DNA from: an uncultured virus (IMG/VR IMGVR_UViG_2875455138_000005)
Taxonomy: Duplodnaviria; Heunggongvirae; Uroviricota; Caudoviricetes
Reading direction: 5' to 3' (one strand)
Length of the DNA stretch: 25,243 nt
IMG/VR virus record: IMGVR_UViG_2875455138_000005
Location: 62,001 to 87,243 of that record
Below the pieces are notes generated by a model. It worked only from the letters and a program-made list of their open reading frames with translations, made no database searches and was not told where the DNA came from. Within the stretch, counting starts at the first letter, position 1; the number at the start of each line of letters is the position of its first letter. The translations under genes and the position numbers were made by a program. This document shows, one piece after another, positions 16,226 through 18,754 of this stretch.

Positions 16226-16255
16226 AAAGACAAGTTAAAAGCTTGTCTTTTTTTT
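16226..16255 (+). terminator. Rho-independent terminator after dfrA
   Basis: AAAGACAAG-TTAAAAG-CTTGTCTTT followed by T run. Confidence 0.8.
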
Positions 16256-16300
16256 ACATACTTTTAGAGTGAAAATAAAATAATAAATAGGAGTGGCGAT

Positions 16301-17622: not shown

Positions 17623-17960
17623 TCGATAAATTGACGAAAGATCAACTCGAAGTAATCCGAAAGCGTTCGGAGAAGGCTACGGAAGGCCCGTGGCGAATCG
17701 GGAAGCAATCACCAAACGGATTAAATAATATCGGAACAATTGGCGGATTACTGACTGCACAAACAACGGATGAAGAGGACGCAAATTTCATCGCAAACGC
17801 CCGCCAAGATATTCCGTCGCTACTCGATCACATTACTTTTCTAAACGAAGTAATATCGAGCTGCCGATGCGCTGAGTGTGGCGATGAATTGGGGGAAGAT
17901 TGGGCAACTAACAACGGAGTAGCGTTTTGCAATTACTGTGCTGGACTTAATTCTTTATGA
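17619..17960 (+). CDS. Ead/Ea22-like phage protein with C-terminal zinc ribbon
   Basis: EKATEGPW..DANFIANARQDIPSLLD motif; CAEC...CNYC; AGGAGG RBS. Confidence 0.75.
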   Translation: MIDKLTKDQLEVIRKRSEKATEGPWRIGKQSPNGLNNIGTIGGLLTAQTTDEEDANFIANARQDIPSLLDHITFLNEVISSCRCAECGDELGEDWATNNGVAFCNYCAGLNSL

Positions 17961-17989
17961 AATCTGTATTTTAAAGAGAAGGTGATGCA

Positions 17990-18112
17990 GTGAAAGAGTC
18001 GTTGAAGAATGATTTTCAAGAGTTTGTGAGTATTGCAAAAAGCTTTCTTGCTGTTTCTGGAGCAGTCTTTTGGTTATTGATAATTTCACTTGTTTTTGCT
18101 GGAGGCTATTAA
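17990..18112 (+). CDS. 40-aa single-TM peptide (not in ORF track)
   Basis: AAGGTGA RBS, GTG; MKESLKNDFQEFVSIAKSFLAVSGAVFWLLIISLVFAGGY. Confidence 0.65.
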   Translation: MKESLKNDFQEFVSIAKSFLAVSGAVFWLLIISLVFAGGY

Positions 18113-18113
18113 A

Positions 18114-18302
18114 ATGAATCAATCATATAAATTTAGTCTAGAAAAATTACCAATAGAAAGCTTAGAGAACCTGAAGACAGACATACAAAATAGAATTAAT
18201 GATGGCTTGCGTACTGATAACAACGTATACATAAAAGACCAAAGAAGAAAACTTCAAATCTTTTTAGACGAGCTGGTTAGACGAAGTACACTTGTTCACT
18301 AA
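18114..18302 (+). CDS. Phage hypothetical protein (62 aa)
   Basis: GGAGG RBS fits ATG at 18114. Confidence 0.75.
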   Translation: MNQSYKFSLEKLPIESLENLKTDIQNRINDGLRTDNNVYIKDQRRKLQIFLDELVRRSTLVH

Positions 18303-18316
18303 AGGAGGTGAATACA

Positions 18317-18355
18317 ATGCCAGAAGTACTTTACGGATTTGGAAGAGGAGCGTAA
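18317..18355 (+). CDS. 12-aa micro-ORF MPEVLYGFGRGA ending in an arbitrium-like hexapeptide
   Basis: AAAGGAGGTGA RBS at 18301-18311, ATG, TAA, then a hairpin. Confidence 0.75.
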   Translation: MPEVLYGFGRGA

Positions 18356-18377
18356 AAAAGAGGGGATTAATCCCCTC
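18354..18377 (-). terminator. Terminator of sspC, possibly bidirectional
   Basis: GAGGGGA-TTAA-TCCCCTC with A6 on the left (U6 on the minus strand). Confidence 0.8.
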
Positions 18378-18382
18378 ATAAA

Positions 18383-18595
18383 TTAATGAAATTGACCATT
18401 CATGCTTTGCTGAGCCATGCGAACCAAACGTTTTGTGATTTCTCCACCTACTGAGCCGTTTGCTCGGCTTGTTGTGTCTGCTCCCAGTTGAACACCAAAC
18501 TCAGAAGCAATTTCATACTTCATTTGTTCAAGGGCACCAGCAGCTTGAGGCACAAGTAATTCATTGCTGTTGTTTGATCTGTTTTGTTGAGCCAT
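18383..18595 (-). CDS. sspC: Alpha/beta-type small acid-soluble spore protein
   Basis: [37 protein letters not shown] signature; AGGAG RBS. Confidence 0.95.
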
Positions 18596-18639
18596 ATGAT
18601 CATCTCCTAAAGTAGTATGTAAACAAGTTTGTTCAATTG

Positions 18640-18668
18640 TAGTGTGTGGAGATGATTTGAAAATATAC
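18640..18668 (-). promoter_or_regulatory. SigG-type promoter of sspC
   Basis: Minus strand GTATA-N17-CACACTA. Confidence 0.6.
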
Positions 18669-18696
18669 ACATTAAATTTGAAGTGAGGTGATTTAA

Positions 18697-18720
18697 ATGT
18701 CGATTGGTCATGGAGCATAA
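18697..18720 (+). CDS. 7-aa micro-ORF MSIGHGA (arbitrium-like hexapeptide after Met removal)
   Basis: GAGGTGA RBS at 18685-18691, 5-nt spacer, ATG TCG ATT GGT CAT GGA GCA TAA. Confidence 0.7.
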
Positions 18721-18754
18721 GTTAACACGTACTTAAACAAAGAAGGGGGATAAA

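Follow-up and report, generated by a model that had tools for sequence, protein, structure and literature searches.

Arbitrium Signals and Related Short-Peptide Systems

Arbitrium is a model for virus–virus communication. Its receptor, AimR, no longer activates aimX when it carries the peptide, a state reported to favour lysogeny and to block the induction of prophages (PMC13220667; PMC8612738); the addition of the cognate AimP was likewise found to block prophage induction (PMC13220667). The present analysis concerns a stretch of DNA of 25,243 nucleotides (nt), hereafter the window, which forms the final 25 kb of an 87,243-base provirus record of IMG/VR (IMGVR_UViG_2875455138_000005, called G000 below; the G000 coordinate equals the window coordinate plus 62,000), and, within it, a leaderless gene of 12 codons, MPEVLYGFGRGA, ending in the arbitrium hexapeptide GFGRGA. 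This minigene is, rather probably, translated and maintained as a forged rival signal that would become active after trimming to the hexapeptide; the processing, the route and the effect are proposed from sequence and comparison. By this means the phage can probably counterfeit a rival’s choice between killing the cell and dormancy.

The hexapeptide is anchored in AimR by its N-terminal amine (Q299/E300) and its C-terminal carboxylate (R228) (PMC6458997; PMC13220667, Table S4), and the closure of AimR is described as requiring both anchored ends (PMC6458997). GFGRGA constitutes one of the six major arbitrium families according to PMC6458997 and is the commonest of the 26 clade-2 mature peptides in Table S2 of PMC13220667 (56 of 281 systems), which agrees with a sequence-only reading of the window, where this peptide was named as a catalogued one. 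Work of 2025–2026 indicates that phages can respond to one another’s arbitrium signals (PMC13220667; bioRxiv 10.1101/2025.10.13.681967): other arbitrium phages can be driven into lysogeny by signals not cognate to them, with a benefit to the emitter, and polylysogeny is common, two arbitrium prophages being present in 35% of the genomes analysed (bioRxiv 10.1101/2025.10.13.681967).

The locus under study would have in common with this cross-talk (PMC13220667, Cell 2026; bioRxiv 10.1101/2025.10.13.681967) a foreign peptide altering the lysis–lysogeny choice, a proposed benefit to the emitter, and polylysogeny as the opportunity. The difference is that in these studies a permissive receptor responds to the secreted AimP that belongs to the emitter, whereas here a separate gene, receptor-less and leaderless, encodes the exact signal of the rival. 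A very short leaderless ORF (open reading frame) for a signal of the RRNPP type is also known from the LCP/SIP–RopB systems of Lactobacillales (PMC10518010), but LCP is paired with its own RopB-type receptor and serves self-communication, whereas the minigene has no linked receptor and its active part is presumed to be the C-terminal half only. Its neighbours are an ORF of 62 amino acids (aa) without a family and the spore-protein gene sspC, and no RRNPP receptor adjoins it.

The propeptides exported via PptAB, such as SHP and PrgQ, are likewise RRNPP precursors; SignalP fails to recognize them as Sec substrates, and their mature peptide is located at the C-terminus. Unlike the minigene product, they comprise 17–30 residues with N-terminal basic residues and a hydrophobic stretch (PMC10075063). 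The heads of the minigene products, MPEVLY, MVQTLH and MGQVLH, include neither Lys nor Arg, and a long hydrophobic run is absent from them. ComS can be grouped with the SHP and PrgQ propeptides. Literature searches returned no description of receptor-less leaderless genes for arbitrium signals; subscription journals and preprint supplements lay outside their scope, so a prior description is possible.

Comparison of the Minigene with Genuine AimP

The sequence-only reading had proposed a 12-codon micro-ORF preceded by a strong ribosome-binding site overlapping the upstream stop, and both features are confirmed by the sequence (Table 1). The ORF reads ATG CCA GAA GTA CTT TAC GGA TTT GGA AGA GGA GCG TAA, and its Shine–Dalgarno site matches AAGGAGGT in all eight positions; in the whole 87-kb record, such a match at a spacing of 4–11 precedes three ORFs of 6–45 codons, the minigene included. 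In every context with an intact minigene, the site is kept as GAGGTG, GGTGGTG or GGAGGTG. The nearest phage records are those of Spbetavirus, i.e., phi3T, Goe12–14, BUCT083 and the SPbeta L-series, and the minigene was annotated in none of the eight phage records inspected.

Like a genuine AimP, the minigene product is encoded by a phage, the phage family itself uses arbitrium, and the six C-terminal residues are GFGRGA. Unlike it, the product has 12 residues and no signal peptide, as had been claimed, whereas genuine GFGRGA AimPs have 40–44 residues and start with MKKVF and a hydrophobic stretch. Moreover, the minigene does not adjoin aimR, its carrier has no matching receptor, and its codons and flanks are unrelated to those of aimP. 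Thus, it departs from AimP in three of four testable features, namely the signal peptide, the adjacency to aimR and the Ala at P1 (the residue before the hexapeptide). The earlier expectation that the N-terminal extension would have to be trimmed agrees with the reported binding of the free N-terminal amine of the hexapeptide by AimR (PMC6458997).

The likeness to aimP resides at the level of the peptide and does not reflect a recent DNA copy, since both codons and flanks differ. Genuine GFGRGA aimP genes use GGT TTT GGA CGT GGT GCG or GGA TTT GGT CGT GGC GCT, the minigene uses GGA TTT GGA AGA GGA GCN and its flanks are unrelated; for SASRGA, TCA GCT AGC AGA of the genuine aimP stands against AGT GCA AGT CGA of the minigene.

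The match to GFGRGA exceeds chance. A degenerate scan across IMG/VR for GF-G-[R/S]-GA followed by TAA returned 55 loci, of which 14 belonged to the minigene locus, 12 were genuine aimP genes and 29 were unrelated. A scan of metagenome contigs gave 23 loci; 22 of these were unrelated to the minigene locus, and the remaining one (L124) carried a minigene identical to that of the window. The scan of genome contigs anchored on the sspC terminator returned a single locus, an unrelated match in a marine metagenome-assembled genome, and no Bacillus genome.

A Family of 12-Codon Minigenes at the sspC Locus

The GFGRGA minigene belongs to a family of leaderless 12-codon genes situated beside sspC. Their products are divided evenly into a head of the pattern M-x-x-[V/T]-[L/F]-[H/Y] and a tail, each of six residues. 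Three tails were seen, i.e., GFGRGA, SASRGA and NPGRGA. Compared by eye with the 26 peptides of Table S2 (PMC13220667), all three are catalogued clade-2 mature peptides, ranking first, second and seventh. If the RGA ending is granted, the probability that three random tails would all be listed is ~4e-9.

SPbetaL1 holds two minigenes in tandem: MVQTLHSASRGA, which has a separate ribosome-binding site, begins 71 nt upstream of the start codon of MPLVLYGFGRGA. SPbeta, whose own signal is GMPRGA, has an intact and unannotated MVQTLHSASRGA between yosZ and sspC (NC_001884.1, 129848–129886, equal to L004:1442–1480). The same product is encoded in Goe11, L102 and, with two synonymous changes, L093 (further coordinates L005:1446–1484 and L007), and L176 carries MVQTLYSASRGA, a SASRGA-type minigene with its own Shine–Dalgarno site. 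In G001, the first slot holds MGQVLHNPGRGA with the NPGRGA tail (C1:7322–7360, minus strand), followed by MPVVLYGFGRGA; the contig is shared with L097/L179, and the own AimP is of the SASRGA type. Relative to the SASRGA allele, MGQVLHNPGRGA differs in the three specificity residues and retains the head and the RGA ending.

Micro-ORFs with an ATG start, 8–16 codons and a Shine–Dalgarno match of at least 6/8 were listed in five whole records (SPbeta, SPbetaL1, Goe14, G001 and G000). Among the 236 micro-ORFs, an RGA ending is found in only seven; each of these comprises 12 codons, has a Shine–Dalgarno match of at least 7/8 and lies at the sspC-side locus. By the same thresholds, no minigene adjoins aimR in any of the five records. 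In the G000 record, no other arbitrium-like micro-ORF was found besides aimP and the minigene; a candidate IRGA* at G000 29335–29349 was rejected, as it consists of only four codons after a stop.

Against this background, a chance ORF or a purely cis-acting element, e.g., one in which translation would only influence how far transcription proceeds past the hairpin into antisense sspC and the peptide sequence is irrelevant, seems hardly credible. It is true that only 4 nt separate the minigene stop from the hairpin, that this stop overlaps the A/U tract of the terminator, and that some chance hexapeptide matches are to be expected from the very many windows scanned at the first stage. Still, three different tails at one locus all equal catalogued signals, the changes follow a pattern of the peptide rather than of the DNA, and the minigene is kept where sspC is truncated or replaced. 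Thus, only the last ~18 codons of sspC remain in L086, L092, L097, L098 and L100, within an open frame of 31 aa, and three of these loci keep an intact GFGRGA minigene. In a 14.6-kb contig from the RNA library of a relative (X15), the 62-aa gene is missing (165 bases skipped) and 1,020 other bases replace sspC; in comparison with the window, positions 18127–18293 and 18358–18729 differ and the 18293–18358 block with the minigene is kept.

Own Signals of the Carriers

The sequence-only reading had pointed to a comparison with the phage’s own aimP and with published peptides, and by this comparison the minigene peptide is foreign. The only PF22871 (AimR) match in G000 lies at 26585–27505, inside an ORF at 26402–27547, and next to it is an AimP ending in SIIRGA; the minigene, at G000 80317–80355, is ~52.6 kb away. 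The resident AimR is only 35% identical to a GFGRGA-type AimR. Since this single AimR is paired with a SIIRGA AimP, GFGRGA is foreign to the phage, which also lacks a receptor for this signal. No second AimR was found in carriers: among the 16 records searched, 15 have exactly one, and G013, a 66-kb fragment, has none.

The same holds for other carriers. The own AimP was read for 14 carriers of an intact GFGRGA minigene, and their signals are SASRGA (five carriers), SPSRGA (three), SIIRGA (two) and GIVRGA, GVVRGA, SAIRGA and GMPRGA (one each). In none of the 14 is the own signal GFGRGA, though it is the commonest signal. In turn, carriers of the SASRGA minigene have GMPRGA, GVVRGA or GIVRGA as their own signals, and none of the five phages with SASRGA as own signal carries a SASRGA minigene; the slot of one of them (G001) holds NPGRGA instead.

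Phages of the GFGRGA type do occur as potential rivals. Genuine GFGRGA aimR–aimP pairs were found in twelve IMG/VR contigs of 28–95 kb (PF22871 was checked on one, L037), and two IMG genomes hold both a contig with the genuine GFGRGA system and an SPbeta-like contig carrying the minigene. No match to the genuine GFGRGA system was found among the sequenced isolates of the phage collection.

These data also bear on the possibility that the product acts on the carrier’s own circuit and not on rivals, e.g., as a ligand that is made inside the cell late in infection and cross-talks weakly with the resident AimR. Cross-talk of clade-2 peptides with non-cognate AimRs does exist (PMC13220667; bioRxiv 10.1101/2025.10.13.681967), no test of GFGRGA against a SIIRGA-type AimR was found, and GFGRGA is absent from the main text of bioRxiv 10.1101/2025.10.13.681967. 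On the other hand, the GFGRGA minigene occurs in phages with seven different own signals, and the tails are the commonest foreign signals rather than near-variants of the carrier’s own. Furthermore, according to PMC13220667, synthetic GFGRGA and SASRGA left the induction of SPbeta, phi3T and Goe11 unreduced, yet SPbeta and Goe11 carry the SASRGA minigene. A self-directed role is therefore judged improbable.

Selection on the Minigene and Its Independence from Neighboring Genes

The minigene is under purifying selection, as judged from the pattern of its sequence changes. Seven ORF haplotypes (six with ATG and that of L093 with ATC) were compared over codons 4–12 and the changes were counted by hand; codon 3 varies (E, V or L). 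Six changes are synonymous (GTA/GTT, TTA/TTG, TAC/TAT, GGA/GGT, GGA/GGG and GCG/GCA). The only replacement, L5F, is conservative, and a double change between Leu codons (CTT to TTA/TTG) has an ambiguous path. At a synonymous fraction of 0.27–0.30, this corresponds to P = 0.002–0.004; with the Leu path treated as synonymous, the value falls to ~3e-4. In addition, wherever the tail is altered, the start or the frame is lost as well, and an altered tail was never seen in a haplotype whose start and frame are intact; the gene appears to be either maintained or dead.

The homology between carriers begins at the ribosome-binding site; farther upstream, the contexts are unrelated (~45–50% identity). 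Five such contexts were distinguished, including the 40-aa and 62-aa genes together, the 40-aa gene alone, another minigene, and other DNA. Since the conserved block starts at the ribosome-binding site in all five, the minigene is not a degraded fragment of a longer gene; descent from such a fragment had been named as fatal to the original proposal.

It is likewise very improbable that the minigene represents a functionless relic, i.e., the leftover 3' end of a former second aimP/arbitrium locus or of a longer gene. Such a relic would accord with the breakage of the gene in many lineages and with a clade in which a related tail, GFGKGV, forms the C-terminus of a 102-aa ORF. The presence of an own Shine–Dalgarno site and ATG within the conserved block, the mostly synonymous changes, codons distinct from those of genuine aimP (Arg is AGA in the minigene and CGT in aimP, Ser is AGT in the minigene and TCA/AGC in aimP) with unrelated flanks, and the lack of any AimR remnant besides the single AimR per phage all argue against it. 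As for the GFGKGV clade, its 92-aa upstream ORF ends with TAG in L086 and L090 and is read through at TGG in L103, L105, L108 and L109, giving the 102-aa product with the end WVFGFGKGV (WVFGLGKGV in L108); in L096, the seventh locus of the clade, the remnant is truncated further. TAG/TGG distinguishes the unfused from the fused loci; the R and A residues of the tail are missing from the fused form, which we read as the result of decay and accidental fusion.

Distribution and Decay among Relatives

The GFGRGA minigene is intact in SPbetaL1 (MPLVLYGFGRGA) and Goe14 (MPVVLYGFGRGA). In phi3T and Goe12, a 1-nt deletion in a T-run shifts its frame; SPbeta and Goe11 have ATA in place of the start codon, together with a decayed tail; SPbetaL8 and SPbetaL4 show a 5-nt deletion and lack a start. 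Goe13, BUCT083, phi3Ts and the hybrid phages gave scores equal to that of phi3T, by a comparison of scores only.

A scan of IMG/VR anchored on the sspC terminator alone, and hence blind to the state of the minigene, retrieved 26 loci. An intact ATG with GFGRGA was present at 11 of them, and ATC replaced ATG at one (L093). The frameshift of the phi3T type occurred at two loci (L087 and L111), and the decay of the SPbeta type and that of the SPbetaL4 type at one locus each. Seven loci retained the remnant GFGKGV without a start of its own, and three showed no trace of the minigene.

Evidence against a Forged Signal

Several observations weigh against the interpretation of the minigene as a forged signal. 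The gene is dispensable, as follows from its frameshifted (phi3T, Goe12, L087, L111), decayed (SPbeta, Goe11, SPbetaL4, SPbetaL8), remnant (7/26) and absent (3/26) states; breakage in many lineages fits an accessory weapon and, equally, a gene of weak usefulness. The locus counts are not independent, since many of the sampled prophages are closely related, and the absence of carriers with GFGRGA as own signal is only weakly significant (a probability of 0.045 if they were independent). The selection test is based on only seven haplotypes. Furthermore, the 39-nt block is 82–100% identical between carriers, which is not clearly above the 3' end of sspC (79–98%), so that the signal of selection lies in the position of the changes and not in their number.

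The site of the putative cleavage raises another difficulty. P1 before the hexapeptide is Tyr or His in the minigenes, in contrast to Ala in 12/12 genuine aimP loci and in 16/16 own AimPs, and we know of no protease for a Tyr/His P1 site. The uncut 12-mer should be inactive as an agonist, because AimR anchors the free N-terminal amine. Finally, among the contigs from four RNA libraries, those of X15, X18 and X20 span the minigene at 90–95% likeness and none lies over it in X17; such contigs show neither strand, ends nor transcription, and they may stem from DNA carry-over.

Proposed Mode of Action

The course of events that we infer for translation, processing, route, binding and direction of effect is as follows. 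The minigene would be expressed as the final gene of an operon active in the lytic cycle; expression in the lytic programme is suggested by its position among early-type genes and genes of nucleotide metabolism. The 12-mer would then be cut after the conserved Tyr/His, either in the cytoplasm or by extracellular proteases after phage-induced lysis. The head is under constraint and departs from the Ala-P1 context of genuine AimPs, which suggests that processing takes another route than that of the secreted pathway. The freed GFGRGA may occupy the AimR of GFGRGA-type phages, be it that of co-resident prophages or of phages infecting Opp-importing neighbors, and the rival’s aimX would be switched off. 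As a result, the rival would be held in or pushed into lysogeny to the benefit of the carrier. In a polylysogen, the rival prophage would be kept silent during the replication of the carrier; after lysis, the released peptide might be trimmed outside and imported by neighbors, biasing the rival’s infections toward lysogeny.

The opposite direction of the effect was considered as well. The uncut 12-mer, or the 11-mer after removal of Met, could enter the groove of the rival AimR by its RGA end and block, by its overhang, the closure that releases DNA, leaving the rival deaf to its own signal and lytic or inducible. The reported need for both anchored peptide ends in this closure (PMC6458997) makes such an antagonist conceivable, and the usual processing site with Ala at P1 is missing. 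The conserved head (V/T-L/F-H/Y), with its mostly synonymous evolution, may accordingly be a part of the active molecule and not a spacer. However, the first three residues of the tails copy genuine signals exactly, which an agonist needs and a blocker anchored by RGA would not, and an induced co-resident rival would compete inside the same cell. For these reasons, antagonism is regarded as unlikely, and the trimmed hexapeptide acting as a counterfeit agonist is preferred.

Gene Order around the Minigene

The features of the locus are collected in Table 1. Downstream of thyA and dfrA come a terminator-like hairpin and a promoter-like site, six plus-strand ORFs without functional annotation and, as the last gene, the minigene; on its right side, the minigene locus is bounded by the convergent sspC. 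The stretch 16226..16281 likely represents, by its match to consensus motifs, the start of a transcription unit in which the minigene is the last cistron. A promoter scan of the SPbetaL1 locus yielded one weak site, no more than in shuffled controls.

The sequence-only reading had described the minigene as the last cistron of its operon followed by a hairpin. The terminal position in the plus-strand unit stands and the hairpin is present, but the latter serves mainly to terminate sspC, which is convergent to the minigene: a score was obtained in the terminator scan for the minus strand only, and the U6 tract that follows the hairpin there is the complement of the A-run 18354–18359 after the minigene stop. 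On the plus strand, it is hence at best a weak terminator.

The 62-aa ORF is missing from some carriers of the minigene (L181 and the X15 contig). The exact 21-mer AAATCTGTATTTTAAAGAGAA at the left edge of the cassette was found at 22 IMG/VR loci, where it is followed by the 40-aa gene, a minigene, an unrelated gene or sspC directly; it may mark a boundary of recombination or serve in regulation.

Table 1. Features at and upstream of the minigene locus (window coordinates).
Feature	Position	Strand	Remarks
Terminator-like hairpin	16226..16250	+	Consensus match only
Promoter-like site TTTACA-17-TAAAAT	16253..16281	+	10/12; directly after the hairpin; consensus match only
Junction motif AAATCTGTATTTTAAAGAGAA (21-mer)	17960..17980	+	Left edge of the variable cassette before sspC
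40-aa ORF	17990..18112	+	C-terminal half hydrophobic; no Pfam/PHROG match; hypothetical protein in phi3T and Goe12
62-aa ORF	18114..18302	+	No Pfam family; stop TAA 18300–18302 overlaps the Shine–Dalgarno site of the minigene
Shine–Dalgarno site AAAGGAGGTGA	18301..18311	+	AAGGAGGT core 7 nt before ATG; 8/8 match
Minigene MPEVLYGFGRGA	18317..18355	+	Leaderless, 12 codons; ATG 18317; stop TAA 18353–18355 included
GFGRGA codons GGA TTT GGA AGA GGA GCG	18335..18352	+	Proposed forged signal; window reading, match to a catalogued peptide
Hairpin GAGGGGA-TTAA-TCCCCTC, 7 bp	18360..18377		−12.8 kcal/mol on the plus strand; terminator scan scores the minus strand only
sspC, alpha/beta-type small acid-soluble spore protein	18383..18598	-	Pfam PF00269, E 7e-23; sspC in relatives

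Farther upstream, 156 bases at 17654–17809, within a 129-aa ORF, are 88.5% identical to ORF9 of phi105, an unrelated temperate Bacillus phage, and represent a mosaic segment.

Two other micro-ORFs emerged from the whole records. A micro-ORF of 9–10 codons with a Shine–Dalgarno match of 7–8/8 and a product that is not arbitrium-like (MGISLHSEH, MGKVSFLKEK, MGNVSLHSEH or MGKFRLHSEH) is conserved in all five records (G000:C1:418–447; SPbeta 59999–60031; SPbetaL1 75283–75315; Goe14 51434–51466; G001 78199–78231). Another conserved micro-ORF, of nine codons (MSNNHSHLI, MSNSRPHLT or MSNNRPHLT) and with a Shine–Dalgarno match of 6–7/8, is encoded ~2 kb upstream of aimR, on the strand opposite to that gene (SPbeta 74269–74298, SPbetaL1 89865–89894 and Goe14 67456–67485, all on the minus strand).

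Implications for Virus–Virus Communication

Beyond the single gene, SPbeta-like phages, SPbeta itself included, may possess a modular arsenal of receptor-less and leaderless forgery minigenes of 12 codons. The head would serve the processing, and the tails would copy the commonest signals of rivals, never the own one, and be swapped as the rivals change, silencing co-resident or neighboring prophages in the lytic cycle. This broader proposal seems to us about as easy to doubt as to accept. If true, these would be the first dedicated signal-counterfeiting genes in virus–virus communication.

A receptor-less, leaderless gene for the exact signal of a rival would, if the reading is right, turn accidental cross-talk into evolved deception, and forgery of this kind would help to explain the diversification of arbitrium signals. 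The GFGRGA minigene may have gone unnoticed because its copy is broken in both standard model phages, SPbeta and phi3T. Genes of 12 codons, skipped by annotation pipelines, can carry biologically specific information.

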